Part shown: one piece after another, positions 14,329 through 48,163 of the stretch | Numbering within the stretch: the first letter of the stretch is position 1 | Layout of the letters: the number at the start of each line of letters is the position of its first letter | IMG/VR virus record: IMGVR_UViG_3300049324_000002 | Location: 64,001 to 128,000 of that record | Reading direction: 5' to 3' (one strand) | Source of the DNA: a virus | Length of the DNA stretch: 64,000 nucleotides | The notes under the pieces: generated by a model | Seen by the model: the letters and a program-made list of their open reading frames with translations, nothing else | Databases searched by the model: none | What the model was told of the DNA's origin: nothing | Position numbers and translations under genes: made by a program

Positions 14329-14358
14329 GGCATCCTCGATCTGAAGTATAATACTAAT

Positions 14359-14898: not shown

Positions 14899-15108
14899 TA
14901 CTTCCTCCTCAAAAGTCTGACACGACGAATAGAACGCTTACTCCACACATCATCATGGTCATCGACTTCAGTCAAAGAAACAAGCACAAGATGACTATCA
15001 AAAGACCACACATCAAAATAATTATCTGCCAAATCAGGACTATGTGATTCGTGCCGAAACACACTACCATCACGATACTTGACCTTAACTTTATACATTT
15101 TCATAAGA

Positions 15109-15471: not shown

Positions 15472-15622
15472 TCAGCGCACACACGCACCCATCTACCCGC
15501 TACCAACACCAAAGCCTCAAGCTCACCATGCTCCACTGGCCCTGACCGGCCAGTTCTCGACTCAAACGGACAACGAACAAAATCATCGTCATCCAACTCA
15601 CCCAAAGGATTTACTGCTGACA

Positions 15623-15934: not shown

Positions 15935-16239
15935 GAAATCCCACCCGCTGGCTTACGCTCCATCACCCAAGACCACAACCAACCCTTAATACCATCAGGG
16001 AACAACATATGGTCCGTCTCATAAGCGCGAACACCATCTTCACTCATCAAAAAACCAGCAACCCTCACAGCATCCACACACCACTCGCTGCCAGTCAACT
16101 GACTACATTTATAGTCAACGCGAAATCTAGTGACAAGCAACTGCTCGCGGCGAGCCGGGAAAAGCGAAATAGGAGGCATCTCCTCGACCTCCGTATAAAC
16201 GGAGTGAGTGCCAGCCAGACTCACGACCTTAATACCCAT
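15931..16239 (-). CDS. paralog family A, member
   Basis: VDY......EW.V..V.V.G ... GWLWSWVMERKP. Confidence 0.7.
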   Translation of the reverse strand: MGIKVVSLAGTHSVYTEVEEMPPISLFPARREQLLVTRFRVDYKCSQLTGSEWCVDAVRVAGFLMSEDGVRAYETDHMLFPDGIKGWLWSWVMERKPAGGIS

Positions 16240-21198: not shown

Positions 21199-21270
21199 TG
21201 CCCCCAGGGAATTCTGCCATCCCGACCCACGCTTTAAAAGAGCGTTGCTCTGCTTCTGAGCTATAGGGGC
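21199..21270 (-). tRNA. tRNA-Lys(TTT), atypical T-loop
   Basis: GCCCCTA/TGGGGGC acceptor, GCTC/GAGC D-stem, ACGCT-CTTTTAA-AGCGT, T-arm GGGAT-GGCAGAA-TTCCC. Confidence 0.88.
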
Positions 21271-25014: not shown

Positions 25015-25081
25015 ACCCGTAGGTTAGCATGCAGGCAGCACGAGGTCAACTAGAATCTAGAGATCTACAGGATTTGCGAGA

Positions 25082-26411: not shown

Positions 26412-26699
26412 CTACCGGAAAGCGTAAGCCTCCTGCTCGGCAACGTGCTCCAAAGGCTGGCCAGCCCGCTGAGCACGACGCTTCAACGACCGACGCTCAT
26501 CCTCAGACAAACCACCCCACACACCAGCATCCTGTCCAGACTTCAAAGCCCAGATCAAACACTCAGTAGCGACGGGGCACCGACGACAAACCGCCTTCGC
26601 CTTATTAACCTGCACCAAAGCAGGACCACTTTGCCCTACAGGAAAAAACATCTCCGGATCCTCTTTACGACAAGCAGCACGGTGACGCCAATCAGCCAT
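26412..26699 (-). CDS. whiB: WhiB1-like Fe-S transcription regulator
   Basis: DWRHRAAC..EDPE.FFPVG.SGPA..Q...AKAVC.RCPV..ECL.WAL..GQDAGVWGGLSEDERR.LKRR. Confidence 0.95.
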   Translation of the reverse strand: MADWRHRAACRKEDPEMFFPVGQSGPALVQVNKAKAVCRRCPVATECLIWALKSGQDAGVWGGLSEDERRSLKRRAQRAGQPLEHVAEQEAYAFR

Positions 26700-32706: not shown

Positions 32707-32982
32707 TCACCTCCTCACACGCCACGAATCTCTGGCAAACACAACAACCTTGTTCTGATCAAAAGAAACCAACACCACAAACATCCCACCCGGGCCATGA
32801 CTCACAGACGAAGCAACACAAGAAATCGATTCCTCCGCAGTCCACCCCAACGCAAAAGCAGTATCAACCTGCGCCTCAACCAAACGATAATTATTGCGAA
32901 GCTGAAAATTCAACTCATCAACCCAAGACTGCGCCTCATCATCAAACTCAGGCTCCGTCACCAACCTCGAAGTGTTCGTCAT
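32707..32982 (-). CDS. paralog family C, member with MTNT start
   Basis: LVTEP....A..WV.ELN ... VLVS. Confidence 0.7.
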   Translation of the reverse strand: MTNTSRLVTEPEFDDEAQSWVDELNFQLRNNYRLVEAQVDTAFALGWTAEESISCVASSVSHGPGGMFVVLVSFDQNKVVVFARDSWRVRR

Positions 32983-33250
32983 ACACACATCCTACCGTAC
33001 ATCACACACAACGACAACCTGGGGTACAACAAAACAGGGGGTTTCGTTGGAACTAGAGCCCGAACCTACAACGAACGTTGCACCCCCAGCCACACCACAC
33101 CGGGGCTGTGTTGGAGCCTCCCGCCCTCATCCACCCGGCCCGCCAGCCACACTCCAACCCAGCATTGGCGCCGCTTGGTCACACCTTGGACAAAGCTAGG
33201 AACCGAAACAATCCAACCTAAAAACCCAGTAAAAACTGATAGAAAGGAAA

Positions 33251-34549: not shown

Positions 34550-34925
34550 AGGGACGGCCCTATATAAAGGCCTGTCTAGAAAGGCCCCTTTACGGAAAGC
34601 CGGTACTTGAGGGGGGTTTACAGTCACGATTCAATCCCCTGAATTGAAGAACCCAATAACCGGGATTCCCCATACAACGAACCCAGGAGAAACAAGAAAC
34701 GGGCCTACGAAAAATCGTAGAACCCGTTCCCTGGATAAAGCCTATTTAGTTTAGATTCAGAGCCCGAAAGTTGATTTACCCTTCCTTTCCCGCCTATCCA
34801 ACCACAAACCAATTCCTGCAAGAATCGTACAAAGAAGTGCGCCCACTGCCATCCACAAAAGGAAACTAATCAAACCACTTAAGATATCCATTCTAGAAAG
34901 CCCCCTAAATTGCAATGAACGAATA

Positions 34926-35117
34926 TCAGCTAAGCGATTTAAGCGGAACCCAAGAAATGCGATTACTACCATCAAATCTCACCGGAACCGTACCATCATC
35001 GGAAACAGGCCCCATAACATAAGCCTGACCAATCTTATCCGTATCAAAACCCACATTCACATAAACTTCGGAGTCCTTGAAAATCCTGGAGGGATCGATC
35101 CATTTGGAGTTCGTCAT
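34926..35117 (-). CDS. MTN-start SH3-like protein (family D-like)
   Basis: PVSDDGTVPVRF....WVPLKSL. Confidence 0.7.
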   Translation of the reverse strand: MTNSKWIDPSRIFKDSEVYVNVGFDTDKIGQAYVMGPVSDDGTVPVRFDGSNRISWVPLKSLS

Positions 35118-35168
35118 GCTAGAAGCATAGCACCACCACGCGGACAACGCAAGTAGGTAAACCCTGTA

Positions 35169-35564
35169 TCACCCGTTCGGGTTGACGCGACCAGACTTAT
35201 CGACCACATCAGGCGTCAAGCGGAACGCACCCGCAAACTCCAACCCCGGGGGCAGCGCAGGACGGCCACGCTTCACAGACCCGCTACGTGGGGCAGAGCG
35301 GGACGGTGACGGCCTAGCAGCCACACGCGGGACACCACCCACCCGGCCCGCAGAGCGGGACACAGCAGGCACCGCAGCAGGCTCAAACAGCCCGTCAGAA
35401 ACAACCTCGTCAGCAGGCGCATCACACAGCACGTACGGCTCACCAGACACCGGAACCGCAGCGCACGGCAAGTGCGAATCAAACGCACCCACAGACGGGA
35501 AAACAACGTGGCAAGAACCACACCCCGCAGATTCAGCATTCCAGCCATTCGGATACCTAGCCAT
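35169..35564 (-). CDS. phage FDxH-type zinc-binding protein
   Basis: CGSCH..F..V.AFDSH. Confidence 0.65.
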   Translation of the reverse strand: MARYPNGWNAESAGCGSCHVVFPSVGAFDSHLPCAAVPVSGEPYVLCDAPADEVVSDGLFEPAAVPAVSRSAGRVGGVPRVAARPSPSRSAPRSGSVKRGRPALPPGLEFAGAFRLTPDVVDKSGRVNPNG

Positions 35565-36522
35565 AGTAGGTCCTACCGCCTAACCAAAGAAGCCCGCACA
35601 AACCGCCAAAGATCGTAGCCAATCAGAAAACACAAAGCAAACCACAAAGAATTATCTGAAACAACATCCCACACCGAACGAAACACATCAACAACAAATG
35701 AAACAAGCATTGCAATCACGCCACTTCGAGTTGGTCAGCAACCAAACCTGAACAAATCTTTTCCACTCCACCCTCAACCGACGACGATTCAAAGCGGCAG
35801 GAAAGGCCCCCGTCACGATTTGCGAACGTCATCGAGTAGGACCACGTAACCGCGTGCACGTAAACCGGTAACGAGTTGGGAACCAAAGTGATTGGCACTA
35901 AAACCGACCCAATCACCGCAACGATCGAAGCAAGCACACCCATGATGTTCGTCATACCCGTATGTCGGTGCAGCGACCGCAAACGTTACACCAGGGGAAA
36001 TGAAAAATTCCACACGAACGGGCGCGGTTTCAGGCCAGTCCAGGAGTAACGAAAAGCAGACTTACAACGATACACACTATTTAGATATCAAAGAATACAG
36101 GGTCTAACACCTAGCCATTCCACCAGGCCCTTTACCCAATAACAGCCCACCCGGGGGCACAGATACTCATACCGGCTAAACACACATCTCAATTCATGAA
36201 AAGCCAGTCAATCAATGATCGTGATTTGGAGATTGGGGAAGATAAACGAGTCACGATTTAGACGAAGGCAGGCCACACATCCTCACGACCATTAAAAGAA
36301 CGGAACACAGTCATCAAATCTGAATACAATGCACGAACAATGAATACATTTGCCTCCTCGTGAGACACAGAAAGGACAGGTGAATCAGCGGATTCATTAA
36401 TTCCATCAAGCACATCCATAACAGAATCGACAGAACCGGGGGCACATATAATCTGCAAAGACTGAAACATTGCAATACCTCACATCACGTGAAAGAGGAT
36501 TGAATTGGGGGGAACAATCGAG

Positions 36523-36738
36523 TCAGAACTTAGTTGCACCATAAACGGCACCGCCAAGAGCGATCACAGACAGCAAGGCGAAAGCAATCGCGTCCAACGG
36601 GTGCGGGCTCGTGATCAATGAAGTGGCATAAGCACCACTCACCATCGACACCAACAGCAAGAAGAAAGCCATCACCACATCAGGAAGCTTAGCGATTCGA
36701 GAGGACTTCGAGGACTTGGGGGATTCGGTGTTCGCCAT
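36523..36738 (-). CDS. small two-TM membrane protein (MANT start)
   Basis: Cassette promoter; two hydrophobic helices. Confidence 0.7.
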   Translation of the reverse strand: MANTESPKSSKSSRIAKLPDVVMAFFLLLVSMVSGAYATSLITSPHPLDAIAFALLSVIALGGAVYGATKF

Positions 36739-36844
36739 AAAAGAAGCATACCGTGAAACCACACACCACGCAAGTCAGTAGACATACACGATCAGGTACG
36801 TAACGTCAGGGACCCCACCCGCGATAGCGGGCAGGGCCACCAAC

Positions 36845-37495
36845 TCAAGCAGTCAGCAAACGCAGGTTCTGAGAACCCAACACATAAGCCATACCAGTCA
36901 AAAGAACACCAATCAAAAGACCGGCAAGACCATCCCACACACCAGAACCAGTAGCCATTGTCAAACTCAAACCAATCGAACCAAGAACACAACCAATCAT
37001 ATCAGCAGTGTCCTCAGATAAAACAGTTTTCGCATTCACATTAGTAGTGGTGCGAAGCAATTCGATCCAACCAATACCTCTCGAAACACGCTCCTCATTT
37101 AATGCTTTATAAGCATTCCACCAAGAAGTGGCCTCCAAACAGAACGAGATAGCCAAAACAAGAATACCAACCCCATTCAGTGAATTAGAAACCTCATCAC
37201 CGAACACTGAACGAATACCCTCGTAAATGGCGTACAAACCACCAATCACAAACATATTCACAGAAGCAACCAACGCCCAGAAGAACTGCGCCTTACTCCA
37301 ACGCTTTGAGTGCCACACACCACCCAAAAGAATCAATTCAGTGGAGCTATCAACCAATGAGTGCGCCGCTTCAGACAACATAGCGGCAGAACCAGTGAGA
37401 AAACCAATTCCCGCTTTAGCAACGAAGATCGTCGTGTTCACACCCAACGCCCAAACGACGGGGCCTGAACTGTGGGTTTCCGTGGTGTTCGTCAT
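36845..37495 (-). CDS. cation diffusion facilitator (CDF) transporter, TM domain only
   Basis: ALGVN..I..AK...GF.TGSAAMLSEAAHSLVD ... G.YAIYEGI ... EDTA ... VWDG.A...IGVLL; no cytoplasmic C-terminal domain. Confidence 0.88.
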   Translation of the reverse strand: MTNTTETHSSGPVVWALGVNTTIFVAKAGIGFLTGSAAMLSEAAHSLVDSSTELILLGGVWHSKRWSKAQFFWALVASVNMFVIGGLYAIYEGIRSVFGDEVSNSLNGVGILVLAISFCLEATSWWNAYKALNEERVSRGIGWIELLRTTTNVNAKTVLSEDTADMIGCVLGSIGLSLTMATGSGVWDGLAGLLIGVLLTGMAYVLGSQNLRLLTA

Positions 37496-38439
37496 ACAAG
37501 AAGCATAACGTAAGCACGACGACAACGCAAGTCAGTAGACATACACGATCGAGTAGTAACACAACTGGCCCCACCTACGATGCAAGTGAGGCCAATCGAT
37601 TAAACAAACCTCGGGAAATCAATTGAATAGGTCCAAGCAGGAAGCGCATGATACAATCTACGAATCACATCAAAAAGAATGGCAGTATCACCACTCACAG
37701 TATAAATAGCAGCAACAGAATTCAATTCAACCTCAAGACCAGGATTACCACCAGTAGCATCAAAGAAAACAGCTTCAATGGTGGTACTGAAATCACTATT
37801 CATATTGATTTTAATAAACGAATCCATTTGCTTAACCAATCCAAGAATGAATCACCAAGAAACGATTAACAACAATCAATCTTCAATTACAACATTACTA
37901 GAATGAATCCACGCCATGTGCCCAACAAAGTCACCTTCGCTTTCTGGCCAAACATAAAGCCAACCACCATTCTCAACAGCACCCAAAGAACACAAAACAA
38001 CGTCATCAGCATGTCCAGAAATTTCACCACTCTGACCATTCGGCTTAAACACAACATCGCATTTCAGAATAGCTCTAACAGTATCAGTGTGGTGATTCTT
38101 AAAATTAGACACAATGACCCCCAATAAGAAAATGAATCACGTAGAAACGATTACGAATTACCGACCGCCAATAGGTGAAAGACATTACGGGGCAGTCAAA
38201 ACCTTTTCAGCCGGGACATCGTCAACCGCAACACGGCCACGCAACGCACGAACCGCCCGTACGCGCACCACACCACCAGCACCGGGATAACCATCAACGA
38301 TCACCGCACGACCCGCCAGCGGCGAATCAACGCCCTCAGCCAACCGACCACGCACACCCGGGAACAACCGCGAATCACGCACCACAACCTCCAAGTTTTT
38401 GTGACTACACCCAGTACATCGTAAAACCACGCAAGAACG

Positions 38440-38781
38440 TTACGACCGAACAGCGTGAATCTGGGCAAGAACCTCATCAGACAAATCCACCACACCCATA
38501 TCTTCAAGAACAGAAAGCGCGCCCTCAATGTCACCCTCACCCGGACCATCCGCACACATCTCAATAACCGCATTCAACAAACCACGATCACCCAACAAAC
38601 GCATTCCCAAACGCGACACAACAGCGCTCACAGAAGCGTGCTCCTCCAACAAATCAGAACGACCAGCGGTTGACAATTCAATCATTGAAGTCACCGCACC
38701 ATCAAAAGCCTTTGCAAGCGTAGAATCCAGAGGACCGGCAAACACGAAATCAGCCATTTCATTTCCCTCGATGTTCGTCAT
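38440..38781 (-). CDS. MTNI-start protein, paralog of 39736-40095
   Basis: GPLD....KAFD ... RLGMRLLG.R shared by both. Confidence 0.75.
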   Translation of the reverse strand: MTNIEGNEMADFVFAGPLDSTLAKAFDGAVTSMIELSTAGRSDLLEEHASVSAVVSRLGMRLLGDRGLLNAVIEMCADGPGEGDIEGALSVLEDMGVVDLSDEVLAQIHAVRS

Positions 38782-38826
38782 GATGAAATCATAGCACAGT
38801 TGGACAGACCACGCAAGTAGGTAAAC

Positions 38827-39093
38827 CTAGCGATTCAGGGGAACGCCCGCAGCGACAGACAGAGCAGCATCACGAGCGGCGGCCAAACGATCCCGGCCAG
38901 CGGCCGTCAGGCGCACCCGCAGACGCACAACACGACCGCGACGCACCGACACCACCTCAGCCAAACCAGCGGACACCACCTCGTCAACAGTCGACAGAAG
39001 CGACGCACCCACCTCAACCAACTCAGGCTCACGACCAGCCAGCTCCAGCGCGCTGAAAACCAACCGAGGCCGGGAAAACTTTGTGTTCGTCAT
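38827..39093 (-). CDS. small winged-helix-like protein (MTNT start)
   Basis: LV.AGL.E ... RLT.AGR motif. Confidence 0.65.
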   Translation of the reverse strand: MTNTKFSRPRLVFSALELAGREPELVEVGASLLSTVDEVVSAGLAEVVSVRRGRVVRLRVRLTAAGRDRLAAARDAALSVAAGVPLNR

Positions 39094-39147
39094 GATGAAA
39101 TCATAGCATAGCTGGACCCAACACGCAAGCCGGTAAAGCAAGAATTT

Positions 39148-39633
39148 CTAGCAAACCTCAAGAGCAGAGCGCAGCACCCAACCAACACACGAAGTGCTAC
39201 CGCCCCGACGCACCCAAGTCACCCGGACCGATTCATCGTCAAGCGCACCACGCGCGCACCAAACAATTGCACCTTTACTAACACGCACATACGTATCACC
39301 ATCAGATAAAGAAACAACAGTCAACAAACGACACTTAACACGCTCAGAAGTAATGTCAGGATTAATCATTGCACCGGCTTGAGCAATTACAGTAGCGGGA
39401 CTAGAAACAGGTAATGGCTCTTTGGCATAATCACCAGTACCATTCTTACAATCACGCCTATCCTTTTGCACACATCGAACAAACAACGAAACAAGGTAAC
39501 CAATCAACAACATCAACCAAAAGACACCAGTAATCGTAAAATATGTCATGGGAGAAACGAATCCAGTAATGAATTCAAGGGCAGTGAAACCACCCCACCA
39601 AGCAATGGAATGAATCGCAATAGTGTTCGTCAT
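39148..39633 (-). CDS. membrane-anchored protein with SH3-like C-terminus (MTNT start)
   Basis: Two TM helices; KGAIV ... GWV.RSALE. Confidence 0.7.
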   Translation of the reverse strand: MTNTIAIHSIAWWGGFTALEFITGFVSPMTYFTITGVFWLMLLIGYLVSLFVRCVQKDRRDCKNGTGDYAKEPLPVSSPATVIAQAGAMINPDITSERVKCRLLTVVSLSDGDTYVRVSKGAIVWCARGALDDESVRVTWVRRGGSTSCVGWVLRSALEVC

Positions 39634-39735
39634 GCAACAAGCATAGCATAGCTGGACACGACACGCAAATCGGTAGCGACAAACAGAAGATCCCCCACCC
39701 GGGCAGGCGAGGGACCGTCTGGAGCCATAGACCAA

Positions 39736-40095
39736 CTACCCAACGGAGGCACACGCCGCGAGCACCTGAGCAGCCACAACATCGTCAAGCTCCACAATGC
39801 CCTCACTCCACAACCAACCCAGAGCGCCCATCAGCCCAAACGTAGAATCAGGGCCTGACGGAACATCACGAACCACACCCATTACTTCCTGAACCACCCG
39901 ACGCGAACCAAGCAAACGCATTCCCAAACGAATGATTGAATCTTGCAATTCCATTTCACCATCAACAATGAAATCAGGAATGGCATCGAATTCGTGCATA
40001 GCATCAAGCAACCGATCAAACGCTTTAACCATTGCCAGATCCAGCGGACCGGTCACAGACAACTTAGCCACAACGACCTCCAAGTTTTTGACCAC
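39736..40095 (-). CDS. paralog of 38440-38781
   Basis: GPLD...KAFD ... RLGMRLLG. Confidence 0.7.
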   Translation of the reverse strand: MVKNLEVVVAKLSVTGPLDLAMVKAFDRLLDAMHEFDAIPDFIVDGEMELQDSIIRLGMRLLGSRRVVQEVMGVVRDVPSGPDSTFGLMGALGWLWSEGIVELDDVVAAQVLAACASVG

Positions 40096-40109
40096 AACAA
40101 CGGGATGAA

Positions 40110-40358
40110 TCAGTACTCGAAACGAGGGAAGTCAGGAATATCAATTCCCTGCTCTTCCATGATTTCAGAAGCAACACGCAATGCGGACTTCAACTCAATA
40201 GCAGCAATAGCCACATTCCGAGCCGCACGCTTAATCGTTTCGACGTCAGTCACATCCAAGAAATCTTTACCATTCTCAGCAAGAGAATCGAGAGTGGACT
40301 CGACACAACCAGCAATGTCACTCACGGTGATGGCTGGCTTTTTCGTTGTGTTCGTCAT
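40110..40358 (-). CDS. helical hypothetical protein (MTNT start)
   Basis: Cassette promoter. Confidence 0.75.
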   Translation of the reverse strand: MTNTTKKPAITVSDIAGCVESTLDSLAENGKDFLDVTDVETIKRAARNVAIAAIELKSALRVASEIMEEQGIDIPDFPRFEY

Positions 40359-40418
40359 GCTGAAAGCATAGCATAAGCACGAACACCACGCAACCCTGCA
40401 TAACAAGATTTTCTAGAC

Positions 40419-40465
40419 AAAAGCCAGGAGCCCCCACCCACTCGGGGCAAGAGGCTCCTGGCTAA
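40419..40465 (-). terminator. cassette terminator hairpin
   Basis: AGCCAGGAGCC/GGCTCCTGGCT followed by TTTT on minus strand. Confidence 0.7.
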
Positions 40466-40466
40466 A

Positions 40467-40542
40467 CCACCTAGGTAGGGAGTCGAACCCTACTTACCAC
40501 CCCCTCACGAAGTGGCGTCCTTCCGACTAAACGACTAGGTAG
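40467..40542 (-). ncRNA. tRNA-like RNA with enlarged anticodon loop, in its own cassette
   Basis: CTACCTAG/CTAGGTGG acceptor, GTTT/GGAC D-stem, GCCAC-(11 nt)-GTGGT, GTAGGG-TTCGACT-CCCTAC T-arm; cassette promoter upstream and hairpin downstream. Confidence 0.6.
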
Positions 40543-40674
40543 CTGGTGTTTCGGTGATGTAAGAAGCATAGCACGACACAGCGAACCACGCAACCCTGTA
40601 GAGCAAGATTTTCTAGACAAAACAGAAGCGATCCCCCACCCGGGCAGGCAGGGGATCGCGAGGGACGAAGCAGG

Positions 40675-40896
40675 TCAAGAGCCATACGCACGGCGCAGCT
40701 CAGTCAACGCGTCAGCCACCTGACGGACCTGAGCGGCATAAGGCAACCGAAACCACGTGCCAGCACCCAAGTGAGCATCAACCTCAACCGGTGCCCATTT
40801 CCAAGCCAACCCAAGATCAGAGCTAGCAGTCAGCTCAGTACCATCAGAAGCGACAATGGACATTTCGCCAATCAGAGCAGATCCGGTGTTCGTCAT
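40675..40896 (-). CDS. hypothetical protein (MTNT start)
   Basis: Cassette promoter and downstream hairpin. Confidence 0.75.
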   Translation of the reverse strand: MTNTGSALIGEMSIVASDGTELTASSDLGLAWKWAPVEVDAHLGAGTWFRLPYAAQVRQVADALTELRRAYGS

Positions 40897-41143
40897 GCAA
40901 GAAGCATAGCACGACCACGTGGATCACACAACCTCGTAGATTCACACGATCGAGTAGTAACGAACCCTACCTAGACGTGCCAAGAATGAACAAAAGAAAC
41001 ACAGAAACCATGAAGACAATGAAACAAATAATAAACAATTGAGACAACGCCAACGAAAGACCAACAAACGTAAGCACCAAAGACACAAATGCAATTATCG
41101 ATAAGCTCCAGAAAACAAATAGATCAAACATAATAAACACCAA

Positions 41144-41404
41144 TCACGATGAAACAGGATCGGGAATAGAACTAGGATCAGTGCAATCAGTGATATCTGG
41201 ATTAGACACATGCAATTTATGCATTGCAGTACAAATACCATCACGCTCAGCAGGAGTTAGCTGATGAACATCAGAACTGGTAACAGGATTAGCAGGAACA
41301 GTCGGTGTAGCAGTAGGAGAACCAAACAAACCAATGAGCACAAGAATGATAACAACCATAAATACAATGTTCCTGATCTTCTTTTTCATCTTAATCCCGT
41401 GCAT
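41144..41404 (-). CDS. secreted/membrane-anchored small protein
   Basis: Basic N-terminus, TM helix, Pro/Thr linker, two Cys. Confidence 0.65.
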   Translation of the reverse strand: MHGIKMKKKIRNIVFMVVIILVLIGLFGSPTATPTVPANPVTSSDVHQLTPAERDGICTAMHKLHVSNPDITDCTDPSSIPDPVSS

Positions 41405-42475
41405 TCCTGAGCAAAGTCACTTGCTCTTCCTTATAATGGTCAACGCCATCAGAAAACTCAATAGACAAAGGCCAATCCGAACCATCGTCAATACCAATAA
41501 TCAACCCAGTATCGTCTTCACCATTCCTAGTGTAATAAACCACATCACCAACACGAAGCATAACAACTCCTAACAAAAAGAAATGGAATAAAAAATAATA
41601 GTCAAATATCAGCTAGTATGCATAATCATAGCTATTACAAATGCAACAATGACGGAAGTCAAAAAAAGAAGAAGCACACTACTACCTGAAATTTTCTTTT
41701 TCACGTTTGCCATTACAGATCCCATCTTCTTAACAAATGGAAACCGCTGACCCGGACGGCCATGGTCAACTCATCCAGGCCAACGGCTAGCTCTTTTTCG
41801 CCTCACGCATTAACGTATTGTGGTAAGGACAAAGGAATGCAGGAGGAGCATTCTCACGAACAAACAAAACAGTGCCAGGCTGATCGCAAGACTCAAGAGT
41901 GAAATCGCATTTACCAAACACCAAAAGCCTAAACCAAGCGACAAACCTAGTCCAGCTCATCACATACCACCAATCATCTCGAACAACGAAGGAAAACGAT
42001 TAACGATTTCTAGGAGCCTCGTTGAAATCAATACCTGGGTATTTAATCGCCAACGCCGCCTTAGCCTTTGCTACATGTTTAGCGTTAGACGGTTTCCAAT
42101 AAGGACCCTGAAATGTATGCACACCAGTCTTTGTCCCATAAACCACTCGAGTCTCATCATCGAAATAAACAAACCCAAATGGATAAGAATCATCACCCGA
42201 ACGATTCTCAATACTAGTGACCTCCATCAATCTCATCCCTTTCCGCATCCTTAGCAAGAATGGCACAAACCTCAGTAAGCCCACCACGCAACCGAATAGA
42301 CCAATCTAGATACTCAAACTCTTTAGATAGATCAACCATCCAAGAATGCAGAGCCTCTAAATCCATGGAGAACCGTGAATAACGAAGCCACGCATTAGGC
42401 TTATCAGGACGAGTAAAGATTGCATACACACCATCTTTATCGTCAGTGGAACTAAACGGTGAAGCATCCCGTAAA

Positions 42476-42895
42476 TCAAGCATCAGAATCACCATAAGCC
42501 GCAATACGAGCGTAGCAATCAGCGTCAATTCCTGTCTTAATCAACTCACGCTCATCATCAGTCAAGTAAGGAAATGCATTCTGAATAAGCTCGCCATCAA
42601 CCCAAGCCTGAATACGCTTAACTGGAAGCTTAAGCGTAGATGCCTTACCACACATAAGGCACGGGCGACAAACAAAGTCAGTAAGCGTTTCAACATTCAA
42701 ATCAAACACACGAGCATAGTATTCCATTTGCCCGCCGTGATCACTAACCAAAACCTTCGCAGTACCATTATACTCAGTACCGCGAGTCACCATAACAAAA
42801 AGCCATTCTTCACCACGAAAAGACACAACAACGTCATCACGCTTAACGACACGACCACTAGCATCGGTCACACGGAATTCATCCATTTTCAGCAC
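42476..42895 (-). CDS. hypothetical protein with CxxC and LIQNAFPYL..DERE.I.TG motif
   Basis: Motif common in phage proteins. Confidence 0.7.
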   Translation of the reverse strand: MLKMDEFRVTDASGRVVKRDDVVVSFRGEEWLFVMVTRGTEYNGTAKVLVSDHGGQMEYYARVFDLNVETLTDFVCRPCLMCGKASTLKLPVKRIQAWVDGELIQNAFPYLTDDERELIKTGIDADCYARIAAYGDSDA

Positions 42896-42912
42896 CCCCG
42901 GGAGAACCTATC

Positions 42913-42948
42913 CTACCGAAGGGGAAAACCCCCTGCGGTGTTCGTCAT
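42913..42948 (-). CDS. 11-aa leader peptide MTNTAGGFPLR
   Basis: Full cassette promoter, immediate stop, internal AGGGGG-TTTT-CCCCT hairpin. Confidence 0.45.
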   Translation of the reverse strand: MTNTAGGFPLR

Positions 42949-43002
42949 GCTGAAAGCATAGCATAACTGGACACAGCACGCAAGTCAGTAGACATAGAAA
43001 AG

Positions 43003-43045
43003 CAAGAGGCCCAGCTCACCGGGGCAGGCGTGAGCTGGGCCTCAG
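43003..43045 (-). terminator. cassette terminator hairpin
   Basis: GAGGCCCAGCTCAC/GTGAGCTGGGCCTC then T-rich tail on minus strand. Confidence 0.7.
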
Positions 43046-43053
43046 AGCCAACG

Positions 43054-43329
43054 TCAGCGGACGGGAGGGCAGGGCAACCCAAGATCAGGGATCTGGTAAC
43101 CAGGGACCACAGAGCGACCACAGCGGAAGCACAGAGCCTCAGGCTCAAGAGCAATCGCCGCCAACGCATCATCCAATTTCTCAAACGTGCCGACCGTTGA
43201 AGTGGGCATTTTATCAACAACACGCTCCACCACAAACAAACCAATCGACAACTCAACCAACTTACAGCTACGGAGGTAAGCGAAACGACCGCCACCCACA
43301 GTGGCATTATTCCATCTGATGTTCGTCAT
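43054..43329 (-). CDS. hypothetical protein (MTNI start)
   Basis: Cassette promoter; CFRCG. Confidence 0.7.
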   Translation of the reverse strand: MTNIRWNNATVGGGRFAYLRSCKLVELSIGLFVVERVVDKMPTSTVGTFEKLDDALAAIALEPEALCFRCGRSVVPGYQIPDLGLPCPPVR

Positions 43330-43365
43330 GCTAAAAGCATAGCATAGACAGACACAGCATGCAAA

Positions 43366-43623
43366 TCAGTAGCGGCCAGAAAACATGGAGCCGGGAGGAG
43401 GACCATAACCAAGAACACCAACCATACGGTCAAACTCGTTTTCCGCGCGGGTTTCCTCCGTGCCAGCCTCAGCCGCACGAAGCCAAGCACTCTCAGCCCA
43501 AATCTCAGCCGCCGACTCAAGCTGCTGAACCATGATCTGATCCCAACACGACCGGACCTCGTCAACCGTAGAATGACGGTGCGGAACGCCTGGGATGTTG
43601 CCACATCGAATGGTGTTCGTCAT
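43366..43623 (-). CDS. hypothetical protein (MTNT start)
   Basis: C.....H.H.TV.EVR.C motif. Confidence 0.7.
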   Translation of the reverse strand: MTNTIRCGNIPGVPHRHSTVDEVRSCWDQIMVQQLESAAEIWAESAWLRAAEAGTEETRAENEFDRMVGVLGYGPPPGSMFSGRY

Positions 43624-43678
43624 GAAAGAAGCATAACACAACCCACACACATCACGCAAGCAGGTAGAACAAGATCTT

Positions 43679-43834
43679 CTATTCGCGAGTGCGGGCACGC
43701 AAGGCGCCAAACGCAGACGTAATCAAGAACAAAATAATACCAACAACCGCCAACCACAATAAAGTCTTAAACGCAAACCCAATAACAATGCACACAGCCC
43801 AAAGAAACAGTAGAAACACGATAAGAGCGATCAT
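43679..43834 (-). CDS. small actinobacterial hydrophobic membrane protein
   Basis: LL.LW....VIGF.FK.LLWLAVVG..LFL.T..FG. Confidence 0.7.
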   Translation of the reverse strand: MIALIVFLLFLWAVCIVIGFAFKTLLWLAVVGIILFLITSAFGALRARTRE

Positions 43835-44215
43835 GTCAGTATAACGAGCACGAAACACAACCGATACGAACAGCGACCTCGGAAGGGGAACGGCACCCAA
43901 CCGAGGTCGCTGAAAGGGAAACGTCGACACGTCATCCCAATAACCTATTAAGTTCTGCCAAGACCATTCAAAAACTCATAAGCCATGGTCTCATTCAAAG
44001 CAGCAGGAGCAGTATTGGTCGGGGGAACAATAACATCAGCAGCGACCAATTCATTGTAGCATTCAATCTGCCGTGGGATCATCTCAATGAAATCGTGAGT
44101 AGCCTTACGATTACGCATCACCCGCATACGGAAAGTAAGCTCACCATTCCGAAAACAAATACGACCCTCACGAGCACAAACAATGAGAAGCCTGTAAGTC
44201 GACCCACCTCTGCTA

Positions 44216-44509
44216 TCAGCCATTACCTTTCACCTGTTCACGAATAGAACCCACAAGAACGCCAACATAATCGACATTCTCATCGCCAGCGTTATCAAAA
44301 GCATCCTGAACAGCCTGAGAAGCTACAGGATAACGAGACTCCAATTCATCAATCATCCAAGCTCGAGCCAATTTCTCAGAAGAATCAAGAGAATCGACAT
44401 CAGTATCCAAAACCAACAAAGCCTGAATCAAATTGATGTCAGAAGTATTCCTCAGAATATGATTCCGACGCGTGCCAATATTTTCAGAAGAACTCGATGT
44501 GTTCGTCAT
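44216..44509 (-). CDS. hypothetical protein (MTNT start)
   Basis: Cassette promoter; RAW.IDELE.RYP. Confidence 0.75.
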   Translation of the reverse strand: MTNTSSSSENIGTRRNHILRNTSDINLIQALLVLDTDVDSLDSSEKLARAWMIDELESRYPVASQAVQDAFDNAGDENVDYVGVLVGSIREQVKGNG

Positions 44510-44559
44510 GCAAGAAGCATAGCATGACATCGCACACCACGCAAGTCGGTAGAACAAGA

Positions 44560-44680
44560 ATCTTTAGCCCAAACGCCAGCGGACCCCTCAACCCTTGCGG
44601 GGAGGGGTCCGTGGCAGTGCGGCCCGGTAGATATTTATGACGAACACCCTTCGGGCCGCACCAGCCTAGGGAGCCTAACA
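44560..44680 (-). ncRNA. candidate antisense sRNA; loop complementary to the shared AUGACGAACAC mRNA 5' end
   Basis: GTGCGGCCCG/CGGGCCGCAC stem (44617-44661) whose loop reads GGTGTTCGTCAT on the minus strand; second hairpin at 44581-44610. Confidence 0.55.
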
Positions 44681-44682
44681 GA

Positions 44683-45009
44683 TCAGACAGACGGCAAATC
44701 AACCAGGAGGCCAAGCACCGCCCGAGAAAACCGAGCAAACGGTACGTTATTCAATCTCACACGATAGATCTCAGGACCAAAATGCTTACGGCCACCCAAT
44801 TCAATCACCTCGTAAACACGCAAGTCAAAGTCGCCAGCTTCGATATCCTCAACTCGACATGTGACAGGAAGCTCACTGTGCTTATAAAGACCATTCGAGG
44901 ACATACGAACAGCATCAGTATTCAGCGGGACAAAACCAGAATCAAGAAGAAACTCGACGCAATCCAGAGTATTTACAATGGACTTTGAGGTATTCGCTGT
45001 GTTCGTCAT
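44683..45009 (-). CDS. hypothetical protein (MTNT start), directly upstream of the candidate sRNA
   Basis: Cassette promoter. Confidence 0.75.
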   Translation of the reverse strand: MTNTANTSKSIVNTLDCVEFLLDSGFVPLNTDAVRMSSNGLYKHSELPVTCRVEDIEAGDFDLRVYEVIELGGRKHFGPEIYRVRLNNVPFARFSRAVLGLLVDLPSV

Positions 45010-45380
45010 GCAAGAAGCATAGCATCATGTCAAACCATCCGCAAGTCGGTGGTACAAAGATTTACTGGAAGGGCTGACCCGGGGCAGCGGCCACCACCCG
45101 CAAGCAGGAACGTCGCGTCACAAACACGCACGCGGCACTGGCAGAAACCACACCGACGCACCCACGGAGCCACCTGAGACGGCACCACAGCACCCACAGG
45201 AGGCTCATCGTCCAACGACAACCCCGCCAACGCCGTCGACCCCGCAAGCAACGACACCGCAGCCTGATCAGACCAACCCCAAGCAGCAAACCAATCCCGG
45301 ATAGTCAGCATTCAAAACATCTTCCCCCAAAAGGGACGACTCCGCCACCCACAAAGGTAACGGAGCCATCACAGAAAGAA

Positions 45381-45728
45381 TCAATCAGAAGGATAAATAA
45401 CAACGGAAAACGAGTAATAAGGCTCCAAACGAACCGAAACAGGAATCTGCAAAGGAAGTTCCATAGCCCTACGCAAAGCACCACGCAAAGGCATACCAAA
45501 CTCGTAATAAAGAGTGTCAGCAATCTCTCCGCTCACACCGCCAGCGGCAGCACGCAGAGCCCATTCATCAGGACCACCCTCCCAAACAATACCGAAATGA
45601 CCAGTCTCCATATAATTGTCAATCAACATAGGATGGCCGCAATCATCCATCAAGCCCTCATAACGCAACTCAATGGCTCTAAGAACGCGCTTAGCATTCT
45701 CACGGGAAACACTCTCGATGTTCGTCAT
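45381..45728 (-). CDS. hypothetical protein (MTNI start)
   Basis: IVWEGGP.EW ... EPY.S....IYP motif. Confidence 0.75.
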   Translation of the reverse strand: MTNIESVSRENAKRVLRAIELRYEGLMDDCGHPMLIDNYMETGHFGIVWEGGPDEWALRAAAGGVSGEIADTLYYEFGMPLRGALRRAMELPLQIPVSVRLEPYYSFSVVIYPSD

Positions 45729-45875
45729 GCTGTAAGCCTACCATACCTAGAAAAGGTGGTCAAGTTTGGATAGGCCGGATCTGACGTAGCCCGACACCAT
45801 AAGCACCCCAGCAAATAAATGCCTGCGATCAAGTGCTCATATAGTGCGTCCGTGCCTATACGGGTAACCATGGGA

Positions 45876-46373
45876 TCAGTCGAAGAACAGATCCACAGGA
45901 CGACCATTCAACAGCATCCGATCCTGACCAATAAATCCAGGTGAGCACGGACACATAGAACAGCCAGCATTGATACTGAACTTCCACTCATCAAACTGCG
46001 GCAAAACAATCTCAATGCCGCACTCACGTAAAGCCTCGGCAATCGTAGCCAACACACCATTGTGCTGCATGTACTCTCGAGCATCCTTAATAGACCGACG
46101 CTGGAAAGCAGCCAACACAGGATCCTTTACATCAGGATTCCGATCATTAGCTTCACGGACCAATTCAGTCTCACGATCACTAAAACCAGGAACGAAAGCA
46201 TCCAACACACCATACGCCCGAACCTTAGCCCAGTAAGAACGGCTATCTCTTCCAGAAGGAAACGGGCGAATAACCAAGTGAACCTTAAACTTCGAACCAC
46301 AAACCTGATAATGTCCATTCTTGTCGATGGAAACGATGGCGGAGCCGGTAGATGTCTCAACTGTGTTCGTCAT
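45876..46373 (-). CDS. hypothetical protein (MTNT start)
   Basis: FS..AGCSMCPCSPGFI motif. Confidence 0.75.
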   Translation of the reverse strand: MTNTVETSTGSAIVSIDKNGHYQVCGSKFKVHLVIRPFPSGRDSRSYWAKVRAYGVLDAFVPGFSDRETELVREANDRNPDVKDPVLAAFQRRSIKDAREYMQHNGVLATIAEALRECGIEIVLPQFDEWKFSINAGCSMCPCSPGFIGQDRMLLNGRPVDLFFD

Positions 46374-46427
46374 GTCACAACCATAGCATGGACGGGGGCA
46401 GCACGCAAGTCGGTAGACCAAGAATTT

Positions 46428-46769
46428 CTAGCCGATCGGCAGATGATCCTCACGCTCATCAACCAAACGGAAATGAACATTTTTCTGAAAACCAATCTCA
46501 AGTAAACGCTTACAATCCTGAGCATTCACATAAGGAATGTAATCAAACACAACATCCCTGAACTGAACATCAGCCTGGAGAATGTGATGATGTGGGTGCC
46601 AATCAAAAGAAGCTTCCTCAAGACCTATACGAGTATTAGCATCATGCCTAACTCTATAATCTTCACCATTCTCAGAAACTTCAAGAATAGAACCAGTACC
46701 CCATAAGTAAGCAAAATGGTATCGCTGACCTCGAGTACGAACACGATCGCCGACTCTTAAACCTTTCAC
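46428..46769 (-). CDS. SH3/KOW-like hypothetical protein
   Basis: LRVGDRVR ... G.I.EV....Y.V. Confidence 0.65.
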   Translation of the reverse strand: MKGLRVGDRVRTRGQRYHFAYLWGTGSILEVSENGEDYRVRHDANTRIGLEEASFDWHPHHHILQADVQFRDVVFDYIPYVNAQDCKRLLEIGFQKNVHFRLVDEREDHLPIG

Positions 46770-47041
46770 GACTCCTCCGCTTTCAGATCATAAACAATAG
46801 ACTGCCAGTCAATACGCTCAAGGTCATTAGGTGCAATCTCTTGTGCAACATGCCAAGCAGCCGTATTCTTTGGAGCTAAACGAAGAACAGCAGTCACATA
46901 TCTCTTCAATGCCTTAGGACCACCCAAAGCAACCTGACGCGCAAAATCAATCAAATCCCCATCATTACAAATCCACACACTCACATGATGGGTAGCAACC
47001 TCATCGTGCTTAAAGGAAGCATAATCTAACATATAAATCAT
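46766..47041 (-). CDS. hypothetical phage protein
   Basis: T..V..WI.ND..L ... IDW..I motif. Confidence 0.7.
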   Translation of the reverse strand: MIYMLDYASFKHDEVATHHVSVWICNDGDLIDFARQVALGGPKALKRYVTAVLRLAPKNTAAWHVAQEIAPNDLERIDWQSIVYDLKAEES

Positions 47042-47042
47042 C

Positions 47043-47309
47043 CTATCGAATAGGAACCTGATCTACAACACGAAAGTTAACACCCTCAAAACCAATAGGA
47101 TTCTGTCGTGCATGTCGAGAACACATTCTCATTTCATGAACAGTGCTCTTACCCTCACCAATAGCATAAATCCAAGATTCAGTAGAAACAATGATTGTAG
47201 CTCGAGTAGAACATCCTACCCGGGACCGGGACGATCCTCCACACAAACGACCCTCACGCCTATTCTTTTCGAGTTTATCGTGCAACTCAGCTGAAATAGA
47301 ATAACCCAT
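47043..47309 (-). CDS. putative Zn-binding protein
   Basis: C...C...A ... MCSRHA. Confidence 0.65.
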   Translation of the reverse strand: MGYSISAELHDKLEKNRREGRLCGGSSRSRVGCSTRATIIVSTESWIYAIGEGKSTVHEMRMCSRHARQNPIGFEGVNFRVVDQVPIR

Positions 47310-47642
47310 TTTACTCGTCTCCCAATTCCAGAATCAAATCGATTTGGGAACGGACCGCGCGCTCACGTTCAGTGATCCGCCAAGCCTCACGACCCAGCTC
47401 AACCAGATCCGCACGGAGCTGCGCCAACTTGCGCTGCCTGAAATCCAAGATCTTAACCTGAGTGTTCGTCATACAGGAATGATAGCATACGAGGTTGCAG
47501 GCAGTCAAGACGGTACAGAAGCACAGCAGACTGCAGGAAACACCACGTCAGGAACCCAAGCAAGAGTGCCCAGACAGAGATCGAGGCTGCCCACCACAGC
47601 GGTAGTAGGCAGCCTCGAGGGGAGGGGCAAACGGATGACAGA

Positions 47643-48032
47643 TCAGCCAAACTGGACAATACCACGACAATCCGGGCACGCCCACCCATGCGCCTCACAA
47701 CCCCGCGCAGTCCAACGCTCGTAATACTGCCAATCATCCTCAGACAAAGCAATACAATCACACCACGTTCTAGAAACATTCAATCCATCAGAAGAAGCAA
47801 TAACTTCACTCGGTGGAATGTGAATATAACGACCATCCCACACTCGGGCAGCGACAATCAGAGAAGGAGTACCAAACCTAACAACCTCAGTACCAATCTC
47901 AGCAGTCAAAACCTTTTCAGCATTCTCCCGAGCACGCGCCGCCCAATCAGCAGCCTCAGCGTAATCGTGAGCAGTCAGAGCGCTCCACAGGAGCACCGCA
48001 GGAGGCTTAGAAGTATCTGTAGCGTTCGTCAT
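47643..48032 (-). CDS. hypothetical protein (MTNA start)
   Basis: WCDC ... HGW.CPDC.GI.Q.G. Confidence 0.75.
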   Translation of the reverse strand: MTNATDTSKPPAVLLWSALTAHDYAEAADWAARARENAEKVLTAEIGTEVVRFGTPSLIVAARVWDGRYIHIPPSEVIASSDGLNVSRTWCDCIALSEDDWQYYERWTARGCEAHGWACPDCRGIVQFG

Positions 48033-48163
48033 GTCACAACCATAGCATAGCTCGTAGAACCACGCAACTCAGCCTCCACGGAGACAAACCTGCAGGTCAA
48101 CCCGATAATGAAACCCCAGGATGCAAAGTGCATTGAAACTGGGAGAGAACAAACAAGTCACGA

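Follow-up and report, generated by a model that had tools for sequence, protein, structure and literature searches.

Why do so many unrelated genes of one phage begin with the same short sequence, and what is that sequence kept for? The question arises from 13 kb of DNA in an uncultured actinobacterial phage of 146 kb, lying inside the window (the whole 64,000-nt stretch of DNA analysed), where 18 copies of a module of about 58 nt occur between 35106 and 48077, all on the minus strand. The module consists of TTGCGT, a 17-nt spacer, the extended -10 box TGcTATGCT, 6 nt and then ATGACGAACAC; 17 of the copies open an ORF and one opens a tRNA-like RNA, with successive starts 200-2052 nt apart. We consider it likely that the array comprises 18 self-contained leaderless cassettes, with promoters for the host primary sigma factor and a functional 5' tag, in a hypervariable region of a lytic-type actinobacterial phage. 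Its features, in window coordinates with (-) for the minus strand, are:

34926-48077 (-): whole array, 18 predicted promoter modules and cargo
48021-48077 (-): module 1 (-45 to +12), ATG 48032; 129-aa Cys-rich ORF, 48032-47643
47582-47617 (-): terminator-like hairpin before module 2, dG -30
47461-47517 (-): module 2, ATG 47472; 53-aa ORF, then three Shine-Dalgarno-led genes (47309-46428)
46362-46418 (-): module 3, ATG 46373; 165-aa ORF
45717-45773 (-): module 4, ATG 45728; divergent, -35 TTGACC and -10 TAGGCT; 115-aa ORF
44998-45054 (-): module 5, ATG 45009; 108-aa ORF with the anti-tag hairpin in its 3' UTR
44617-44661 (-): anti-tag hairpin, 10-bp GC stem and 25-nt loop
44581-44610 (-): terminator-like hairpin between the anti-tag hairpin and module 6
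44498-44554 (-): module 6, ATG 44509; 97-aa ORF and two downstream genes
43612-43668 (-): module 7, ATG 43623; 85-aa ORF
43318-43374 (-): module 8, ATG 43329; 91-aa ORF
43006-43043 (-): terminator-like hairpin before module 9, dG -31, T-rich tail
42937-42993 (-): module 9, ATG 42948; 11-codon mini-ORF only, MTNTAGGFPLR, 42948-42913
from 42895/42886 to about 40967 (-): real genes of module 9, with their own starts
40885-40941 (-): module 10, ATG 40896; 73-aa ORF
40628-40659 (-): terminator-like hairpin before module 11, 14 bp, T-rich tail
40547-40603 (-): module 11, ahead of the tRNA-like RNA; start reads ATCACCGAAACACC, ATG lost
40467-40541 (-): tRNA-like RNA, called tRNA-Ser tga by ARAGORN
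40422-40463 (-): terminator-like hairpin after the tRNA-like RNA, dG -33
40347-40403 (-): module 12, ATG 40358; 82-aa ORF and 119-aa downstream gene, 40095-39736
39689-39716 (-): terminator-like hairpin before module 13
39622-39678 (-): module 13, ATG 39633; 161-aa membrane-type ORF
39082-39138 (-): module 14, ATG 39093; 88-aa ORF
38770-38826 (-): module 15, ATG 38781; 113-aa ORF and downstream genes
37563-37597 (-): terminator-like hairpin before module 16
37484-37540 (-): module 16, ATG 37495; 216-aa CDF-type cation efflux protein, 37495-36845
36809-36841 (-): terminator-like hairpin before module 17
36727-36783 (-): module 17, start ATGGCGAACACC at 36738; 71-aa membrane ORF and downstream genes
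35935-35955 (-): tag-only copy ATGACGAACATC, no recognisable -10 box; 79-aa membrane ORF
35106-35162 (-): module 18, ATG 35117; 63-aa ORF
32971-33027 (-): outlying tagged leaderless-type site, ATG 32982; -10 TAGGAT
25003-25059 (-): outlying tagged leaderless-type site, ATG 25014; TTGACC, N17, TAACCT; 321-aa ORF

The original prediction of a repeat array is borne out genome-wide. A weight matrix derived from the module copies and run over all 146,490 bp gave 18 sites above the threshold of 35 bits, every one on the minus strand between 35117 and 48032 and inside the array, and the sole extra match was weak (18 bits, at 32982). On the coding strand there are 20 copies of the tag ATGACGAAC, where 0.18 would be expected, and the exact string TTGCGT-N17-TATGCT-N6-ATG has seven matches, all on the minus strand, with none in 100 shuffles. 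The 19 copies originally counted correspond to 17 tagged promoters, the tRNA-like cassette at 40558 and the tag-only copy at 35955, which has no -10 box; the two further sites proposed at 25014 and 32982 are genuine tagged leaderless-type sites, but their promoters are divergent. Another tagged site lies immediately beyond the window end, at genome position 128497, and all plausible leaderless promoters of the genome bear the tag. TAnnnT is found 5-7 nt upstream of 19 of the 20 tags, at 6 nt in nearly all, and some promoter copies have an A/T-rich stretch. A generic promoter scan found no excess of sigma-70-like sites over shuffles because TTGCGT and TATGCT fall below its cut-off. The 6-nt gap between -10 box and ATG leaves no room for a Shine-Dalgarno site, whose absence had been noted, and the suspicion that annotated starts were overextended was justified: mechanical ORFs cross the promoter upstream, while homologues of one cargo gene, the module 3 ORF, begin MTNT in six of seven database sequences and diverge over residues 5-30.

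The cassettes are self-contained and their cargo genes mutually unrelated, as first described. The module 16 product matches Pfam Cation_efflux (E 8e-25), in agreement with its earlier reading as a CDF transporter; no homologues were found for the other cargo, which are ORFans, and the 119-aa gene downstream of module 12 is a paralogue of the module 15 gene. Two claims stand in part. The tRNA-like cargo is called by ARAGORN, but Rfam returned no tRNA match to 40467-40541 even at E<=1, and the terminator hairpin expected in every cassette is present as a strong GC-rich hairpin (dG <= -24) upstream of 8 of the 18 promoters, not of all. These hairpins are separate from the repeat and not conserved in sequence.

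A WhiB gene scoring above the Pfam cut-off (window 26484-26690) marks the host, as judged from gene content, as actinobacterial, and a 186-kb relative with 38 tags, G001, was binned together with an actinobacterial MAG. In the phage genome, searches turned up neither a sigma factor nor a single-subunit RNA polymerase, and the 6-nt gap and extended -10 are of the host primary-sigma type expected to yield leaderless mRNAs, as had been proposed. Each cassette would thus open with a strong promoter for host RNA polymerase with a SigA/HrdB-type primary sigma factor, in which the -35 TTGCGT, the 17-nt spacer and the extended -10 TGnTAnnnT would set the start on the A of the ATG, giving an mRNA with neither leader nor Shine-Dalgarno site whose 5'-terminal AUG would be bound directly by the 70S ribosome. 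The module includes what would be the initial 11-12 bases of the mRNA, AUGACGAACAC[C], and this tag is most likely a 5'-terminal element for efficient leaderless initiation, through start-site choice, promoter escape or ribosome loading. Since all messages would carry it, the tag could also serve as a single common control handle. Cargo genes are exchanged behind the tag, a hairpin terminator closes about half of the cassettes, and expression is most likely early. This DNA was found in no RNA run, and we infer promoter activity and strength, the +1 position, early timing and the role of the tag from consensus and geometry.

Conservation of the tag is at the level of the nucleic acid rather than of the protein. 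Genome-wide, the phage prefers ACT (58%) and AAT (81%), whereas the tag uses ACG in 19 of 20 copies and AAC in 20 of 20, and at codon 4 mostly the rare ACA or ACC; the fixed synonymous codons reported initially are thus seen against the genome's own preference. The tag is retained on the 11-codon mini-ORF of module 9, while promoter copies ahead of non-coding RNAs have it absent or degraded, and a non-coding stretch in the contig L115 lies behind one promoter copy without it. CA-rich sequence directly past the start codon has been reported to boost leaderless translation (PMC9031893). Accessibility of the 5' end was rejected as the cause of the tag sequence, as preferred synonymous codons would open that end more (dG_unfold 2.15 vs 3.26 kcal/mol).

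Beyond the studied phage (G000), the module recurs in relatives and non-relatives. G001 is syntenic with it, with core genes at 45-66% identity, yet their array cargo shows no homology. L115 has about 13 tags within 7.3 kb, and the module is also found in L116, G152, G153, G154 and G156; these have almost no proteins in common with the studied phage, and arrays of the module are found in five or more unrelated phage contigs. The extended -10 and TAnnnT rule is valid in six genomes of 48-63% GC, with TANNNT preceding 19 of the 20 G000 tags as well as every listed copy in G001, L115, L146, L166 and L168. Searches found no protein common to all tag-bearing phages. Among 150 actinobacterial genomes there were 37 matches to the tag pattern (0.25 per genome) against 11 for a control pattern. 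Because unrelated phages share the tag with its -10 box and host-type genomes almost entirely lack it, the tag is, on this distribution, a functional RNA or DNA element in itself, beyond a mere recombination handle.

A generic optimum for leaderless expression should be visible in host genes too, yet the tag is rare there.

Five arrays each contain one same-strand reverse-complement copy of the tag, in a 3' UTR or intergenic, which suggests an antisense RNA that might act on the entire tagged regulon. In G000 the hairpin loop holds GGTGTTCGTCAT (44648-44637, 12 nt), the exact reverse complement of ATGACGAACACC; G001 has the same GGTGTTCGTCATAAA at about 9470, inside a tRNA cluster, and the other copies are at 5172-5183 in L115, 12112 in G153/L168 and 7635 in G156/L166. 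Three of the five lie in a hairpin loop, and the opposite strand shows a -10 box at none of them. The 10-mer was observed 1/1/1 times against 0.025/0.020/0.007 expected, and the 15-mer occurs in 64 IMG/VR contigs, of which only G001 has same-strand tags. With all 19 5' ends the predicted duplex energies lie between -16.6 and -21.2 kcal/mol, whereas controls give -7.0 +/- 2.8. We give rather less than even weight to the reading that the tag is kept mainly as the target of such a phage-encoded RNA, whose loop, complementary to 5'-AUGACGAACAC, would pair with the 5' ends of leaderless early mRNAs, shutting out ribosomes or else triggering or preventing decay. It would account for the sequence-specific conservation that accessibility leaves unexplained, fits the lack of a protein shared by tag-bearing phages, and has a parallel in Cluster K SAS repeats, of which each genome also contains just one inverted copy (PMC3203893). 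However, no such copy is present in three of the arrays, namely those of G152, G154 and the tiny L116; the copies of L166 and L115 are partly paired in the predicted folds; a search for a shared stem with the anti-tag gave ordinary genes only; and the copy may be what is left of an inverted cassette, or an additional site bound by a DNA-binding protein. The reading is compatible with the preferred one of leaderless cassettes with a functional tag, and one small RNA would then control the whole regulon.

The region is hypervariable, as anticipated: not only is its cargo not shared with the syntenic relative, but near-identical strains from other soil metagenomes differ by whole-cassette indels and replacements. 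In runs X3 and X6 other sequence takes the place of the module 18 cargo, beginning precisely at 35109, which is the final base of ATGACGAAC; the strain in run X5 lacks the tRNA-like unit (200 bp, 40422-40643) between two near-identical promoters; and a 656-bp loss begins directly 3' of a -35 box. Such differences at module boundaries, together with the PeSL precedent (PMC2839356), favour the view that the repeats mainly serve as PeSL-type recombination handles, alike through recombination, gene conversion or duplication and not through selection on the tag, as does the greater similarity of core promoters inside single genomes (0.60, 0.55) than across relatives (0.47); neighbouring core promoters are also slightly more similar than non-neighbours (p = 0.02). 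We regard this as unlikely, however. Further breakpoints lie in modules at 38810 and 39634, but several fall elsewhere and enrichment in modules is only about 2-fold, on metagenomic contigs that may be mixed from several strains. Identical stretches are about 25 nt at most, and recombination within a genome does not explain an identical tag in unrelated phages with no other common DNA.

Still less probable is that the tag is an operator at +1 to +12, by which a phage or host DNA-binding regulator would switch the early regulon off or on. It overlaps the start site, like many repressor sites, and the inverted copy would merely be another site; but the tag is asymmetric, its bearers have no protein in common, antisense copies are located in RNA hairpin loops, and its loss or decay before non-coding RNAs points to an mRNA-specific role. 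Conservation of an N-terminal M-T-N-T peptide as a processing, stability or targeting signal is hardly credible, for although every product begins MTN(T/I) and homologues retain that start, synonymous positions are fixed despite strong codon preference, the tag is also found on a mini-ORF and partly on an RNA gene, and antisense copies occur. As a probable functional 5' element of leaderless cassettes, the tag module could help reveal how leaderless messages are expressed and controlled.

Actinobacterial leaderless promoters of the SigA type have a -10 TANNNT with the start 6-7 nt downstream and a 5'-terminal AUG or GUG. The array follows them in the -10 rule, extended TGn, ATG distance, ATG start and absence of a Shine-Dalgarno site. 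To our knowledge, host leaderless genes have no common sequence past the AUG, whereas the tag pattern occurs 19-38 times per phage against 0.25 per host genome. The features of leaderless initiation are described elsewhere (PMC9031893, PMC8459731). Streptomyces BE-cluster phages such as NootNoot and Samistivirus also have one-strand runs of small genes, each with a repeated promoter-like motif, but their repeat, on our reading, combines a TAGACT -10 with a leader of about 30 nt containing a hairpin and a Shine-Dalgarno site; their arrays have one leaderless-like gene only and the tag in none. The c4 RNA of P1/P7 is a phage antisense RNA with several targets, processed by RNase P, that regulates a single operon via two short stretches of complementarity at a ribosome-binding site. 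For the anti-tag reading alone it offers an analogy, as a small hairpin RNA of the same transcription unit that pairs with translation starts, and the G001 hairpin within a tRNA cluster would permit tRNA-type processing; the putative anti-tag target, however, would be the 5' ends of about 20 separate leaderless mRNAs.

Cluster K mycobacteriophages and Cluster EF Microbacterium phages have start-associated sequences (SAS/ESAS; PMC3203893, PMC7302621), which are likewise short, asymmetric, highly conserved words in one orientation at many unrelated non-structural gene starts, with a single inverted copy away from gene starts, and are absent from their hosts, where the tag is near-absent from its own. 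The 13-bp SAS word sits at the ribosome-binding site of leadered genes, 3-7 bp before their start codon (PMC3203893), and is conserved across subclusters and of unknown function (PMC3203893, PMC7302621), whereas the tag is the start codon and the next 8-9 bases of putatively leaderless genes, fused to the promoter. Similar in working are the promoter-early stem-loop (PeSL) cassettes described by Arbiol et al. (2010, PMC2839356) in the T4-type phages RB49 and phi1, in which dozens of strong host-type early promoters precede ORFans in hyperplastic regions, stem-loops terminate upstream transcription, and relatives show indels and replacements at the repeats. Both systems have a repeated sigma-70-type promoter, here predicted as TTGCGT-N17-TGnTATGCT in 18 copies, and ORFan cargo in a hyperplastic region. 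The PeSL stem-loop, however, lies inside the repeat, which ends in a Shine-Dalgarno site and start codon, whereas here the hairpins stand apart from the repeat, are not conserved and occur in 8 of 18 cassettes, the predicted mRNAs lack a leader, the repeat runs 11-12 nt into the coding sequence, the host is actinobacterial and the module is common to unrelated phages. The array thus resembles the PeSL cassettes in how it works, but is not a member of that class.

The IMG/VR virus record from which the window is taken measures 146,490 bp and was judged 95% complete. The window's genes are nearly all encoded by the minus strand, whose composition is strongly G+T-rich. A module of approximately 58 nt occurs on that strand in 18 copies between 35106 and 48077, numbered here from 1 (48032) to 18 (35117), with the consensus tctaCcGAC-TTGCGT-N17 (ending TGc)-TATGCT-tcttgC-ATGACGAACAC; the shared first 11-12 bases of each predicted message, from the ATG, are referred to as the tag. 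The strict pattern gave seven matches against none in shuffles, and a PWM search of the genome recovered all 18 copies and only one other, weak site at 32982, which bears out the repeated promoter-and-start array of the original prediction. Module starts are 200-2052 nt apart, 17 of the 18 copies open an ORF (11 to 216 codons) and the longer cassettes hold additional genes, each with its own Shine-Dalgarno site. A terminator hairpin had been claimed for every cassette; strong GC-rich hairpins precede eight of the 18 promoters, and for the remaining cassettes the claim did not stand.

Counting from the A of the ATG, the -10 hexamer of the modules occupies positions -12 to -7; it is preceded by TGn (an extended -10), with the -35 box 17 nt upstream. 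This layout matches that of primary-sigma promoters, and the modules are therefore read as such; in actinobacteria the promoter rule is a TAnnnT box and transcription beginning 6-7 nt further on. The 6 nt left before the ATG are too few for a ribosome-binding site, which is thereby excluded, as the predicted absence of a Shine-Dalgarno sequence had it. On the coding strand ATGACGAAC occurs 20 times genome-wide versus 0.18 expected, with TAnnnT 5-7 nt upstream in 19 of these and a spacing of 6 in nearly all. Across the genome, 27 sites combine full leaderless geometry with an ORF of 40 codons or more; the tag is present at 21, at one of these with one change (ATGGCGAAC), and the other six look like chance matches inside genes. 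Strand asymmetry is very strong across the whole window (plus-strand GC skew about -0.25, AT skew about +0.3), and the A/C-rich tag stands out from the G+T-rich coding strand. One module and two RNA elements need separate description:

Window 40558, minus strand: module copy without an ATG; same promoter, start ATCACCGAAACACC
Window 40467-40541, minus strand: tRNA-like RNA behind a full cassette promoter; tRNA-Ser(tga) according to ARAGORN
Window 21199-21270, minus strand: tRNA at the edge of a VIPR-type array; 45.6 bits in Rfam, absent from the ARAGORN list

The start at 40558 is followed by a gap of 17 nt, the 75-nt tRNA-like RNA and a hairpin. The acceptor stem and T arm of this RNA are good and its anticodon arm is odd; Rfam returned no tRNA match for it even at E<=1, and no family for the array as a whole.

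The choice of synonymous codons indicates that the first codons of the tag are conserved at the nucleic-acid level. The long ORFs of the genome prefer ACT for threonine (58%, with ACG 32%, ACA 5% and ACC 5%) and AAT for asparagine (81%, with AAC 19%), whereas the tag has ACG in 19 of 20 copies and AAC in all 20, in line with the fixed synonymous codons claimed beforehand; at codon 4, two rare threonine codons account for most copies. Among homologues of a 165-aa cargo protein (37-98% identity), six of seven begin MTNT, and residues 5-30 have diverged with indels. The predicted fold of this protein (pLDDT 79) was unmatched in a PDB fold search, and a homologue search with a second cargo family was empty. 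The tag is also conserved on the shortest reading frame of the array:

Window 42913-42948, minus strand: tag-opened mini-ORF of 11 codons (MTNTAGGFPLR), ahead of a separately started gene of 136-139 aa

It could encode a leader peptide or be left over from cargo insertion.

Neither a sigma-factor domain nor a T7-type polymerase was found in the phage genome, which does encode a member of a family that marks actinobacteria and the phages infecting them:

Window 26484-26690, minus strand: WhiB-family gene, 94 bits

Together these observations point to the host enzyme, and host RNA polymerase is the likely reader of the module promoters. WhiB-family proteins bind the primary sigma factor, and this one could retune the host polymerase once the early phase ends. 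Genes read by the host polymerase in lytic phages are usually early genes, and from host-enzyme reading we infer early expression of the array; a search for RNA runs containing this DNA gave none. On entry, the host polymerase carrying the primary sigma factor would most likely fire the module promoters; every array RNA would start AUGACGAACAC and be translated leaderless, about half of the units would be insulated by hairpins, and cargo would be swapped behind the tag.

The tag is shared with other phages. A pattern scan of species genomes gave single chance matches and one 186-kb contig with many (G001:C1, also an IMG/VR virus record), in which a single strand carries 38 copies of ATGACGAAC, with 30 belonging to an array at the contig's two ends. 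The core genes of this relative are syntenic with those of the window's phage at 45-66% amino-acid identity, and comparison of the cargo ORFs of the two arrays gave zero homologues in either direction. A metagenome scan found two module copies on one contig (L116) and about 13 cassettes on another (L115; 7.3 kb, 63% GC), laid out as terminator hairpin, TTGnnn, N17, TGCTAnnCT, N6 and ATGACGAACAC; L115 has no DNA or protein similarity to the window's phage. It also holds a copy of the same promoter that lacks the tag:

L115 3551-3840: untagged promoter copy (TTGACA..TGTAATCT), then about 250 nt without a good ORF and a terminator hairpin

Rfam gave no matches on L115, this stretch included, and its putative transcript is a candidate for an unknown small RNA. 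The exact promoter and tag pattern had zero matches in IMG/VR, where a scan found four contigs (G152, G153, G154 and G156) with 5-6 tags each, arranged as TGGTAnnnT-N6-ATGACGAAC with a variable fourth codon; G152 is complete (58.9 kb, with terminal repeats) and has its array close to one end. The proteins of these four are almost unshared with the window's phage, and the idea that all tag-bearing phages have some protein in common was rejected, as comparison of their proteins gave none. Nor is the tag a host-wide habit: 150 genomes of the same actinobacterial class gave 37 matches versus 11 for the reversed control, approximately 0.25 per genome. Among 50,697 phage records there was no close DNA match to indicate a cultured relative and no match to the 403-aa neighbouring protein, and the phage's helicase reached at most 36% identity. 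IMG/VR contigs found via the helicase (L029-L108) reached at most 42%; those found via a tail-fibre-like protein (L009-L028) were discarded as relatives, having only that gene in common and lacking the motif.

The role rated highest for the tag, in our judgement close to evenly balanced, is to make leaderless initiation efficient; CA-rich sequence following the start codon is reported to enhance leaderless translation (PMC9031893). The tag is possibly also the target of an antisense RNA, for which the evidence lies in reverse-complement copies of the tag (anti-tags) within the arrays:

Window 44637-44648: ATGACGAACACC on the plus strand, read as the anti-tag GGUGUUCGUCAU on the mRNA strand
G001:C1 about 9250-9850 (loci L135 and L158): cluster of several tRNA genes inside the array, with an anti-tag hairpin between two tRNAs

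The window's anti-tag sits in a loop of 25 nt closed by a GC stem of 10 bp (44661-44617); the module-5 gene ends 22 nt before it, and a terminator hairpin follows closely. A divergent gene was rejected here because the plus strand lacks a -10 box at the right distance. The hairpin within the tRNA cluster of G001 carries the same 15-mer (GGTGTTCGTCATAAA), L115 has GGTGTTCGTCA 30 nt past a cassette ORF, in G153 two cassettes are separated by a strong hairpin whose loop contains an anti-tag, and G156 has one in a 3' UTR. The anti-tag 10-mer occurs once per array in three arrays versus 0.025, 0.020 and 0.007 expected under a first-order Markov model, and predicted duplexes of the loop with all 19 5' ends range from -16.6 to -21.2 kcal/mol versus -7.0 +/- 2.8 for controls. 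Of the 64 IMG/VR contigs with the 15-mer, only G001 has same-strand tags. Three further apparent copies proved to be real divergent leaderless genes. Weighing on the other side, no anti-tag was seen within the arrays of G152 and G154, and a scan for the shared stem with the anti-tag turned up nothing but ordinary genes with leaders, encoded on the opposite strand. That tag and anti-tag hairpin form an RNA switch acting on the whole regulon is a tentative reading, on the doubtful side. One small phage RNA, from an early 3' UTR or excised from the tRNA cluster, would base-pair with AUGACGAACAC at the 5' end of all leaderless early mRNAs and set their translation or lifetime jointly, and the pair would have spread, or repeatedly arisen, among unrelated actinobacterial phages. 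If the antisense copy is functional, a single RNA would offer simple control over some twenty separate transcripts.

Two further explanations failed. Compared with random stretches beginning at an ATG, natural 5' ends are the more open (3.3 vs 4.9 kcal/mol, p = 0.004), but the genome's preferred synonymous codons would open them further (2.15, p = 0.0003), and start-codon accessibility was rejected as the cause of the tag sequence. Targeting of modules by the phage's VIPR guide arrays was dismissed, with zero shared 11-mers or longer.

Contigs from four other soil metagenome runs (X3-X6), 85-99% identical to the window and covering the array, differ in array structure. In X3, 34894-35108 is replaced by 282 other letters, and one X6 contig departs at the same place; base 35109 is the last of module 18's ATGACGAAC, so that in X3 the promoter and first three codons are kept and the cargo is changed. 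The X5 strain lacks the whole 200-bp tRNA-like unit (net 201 bp at 40422-40643), and the two promoters flanking it are nearly identical in their upstream part. X4 lacks 656 bp beginning just 3' of module 15's -35 box, and X3 has a 33-nt promoter/tag piece separating two genes that are direct neighbours in the window. That piece seems to be positioned in front of the second member of the array's only paralogous pair (35% identity over 106 aa):

Window 38440-38781, minus strand: first paralogue
Window 39736-40095, minus strand: second paralogue

One copy is tagged and leaderless, and the other occupies a downstream position in a cassette and starts at GTG. Core promoters are more alike within the two related genomes (0.60 and 0.55) than between them (0.47), and neighbours are slightly more similar than non-neighbours (p = 0.02). 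Cassette content is thus variable among relatives, as foreseen in the original prediction, given these strain differences and the absence of cargo common to the G001 array. Its proposal that the repeats serve as recombination handles would agree with the differences at the module 18 tag, beside the module 15 -35 box and at the tRNA-like unit; other breakpoints lie outside modules. Overall, the differences fit exchange at modules of the kind proposed for the promoter-early stem-loop (PeSL) cassettes of T4-type phages, short of proof.

In spite of their own codon preference, unrelated phages share the same 9-12 bases directly after a promoter of host type. To our knowledge, apart from a 5'-terminal AUG and an accessible 5' end, the determinants of efficient leaderless translation are poorly defined, and the tag is a short natural element directly testable in Streptomyces, Mycobacterium or Corynebacterium reporters that may be useful as a compact expression part. 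Arrays also mark the location of the fastest-changing genes of these phages, and, because gene callers carry these ORFs upstream across the promoter, the annotated starts of such phages need correcting.

A literature search found no paper mentioning the tag or describing such arrays, although several known systems are comparable. Streptomyces BE-cluster phages have similar small-gene arrays, in which a TAGACT box is followed by a leader with a hairpin and by a Shine-Dalgarno site; in NootNoot (record positions 1-16000), about 20 small genes each follow a repeated TAGACT box with a leader hairpin (cgaaaggggg..cccc) and Shine-Dalgarno site. One NootNoot HNH gene has a leaderless-like TGCTATGCTTCTTGT-ATG start resembling the window's -10 region. 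The array follows the same rules as actinobacterial leaderless promoters, although host genes lack its fixed transcribed word. It works like PeSL regions, but lacks two features that define them, as there is no Shine-Dalgarno site and the repeat contains no stem-loop. The start-associated sequences of Cluster K phages are alike in logic, the lone inverted copy included, but differ from the tag in position.
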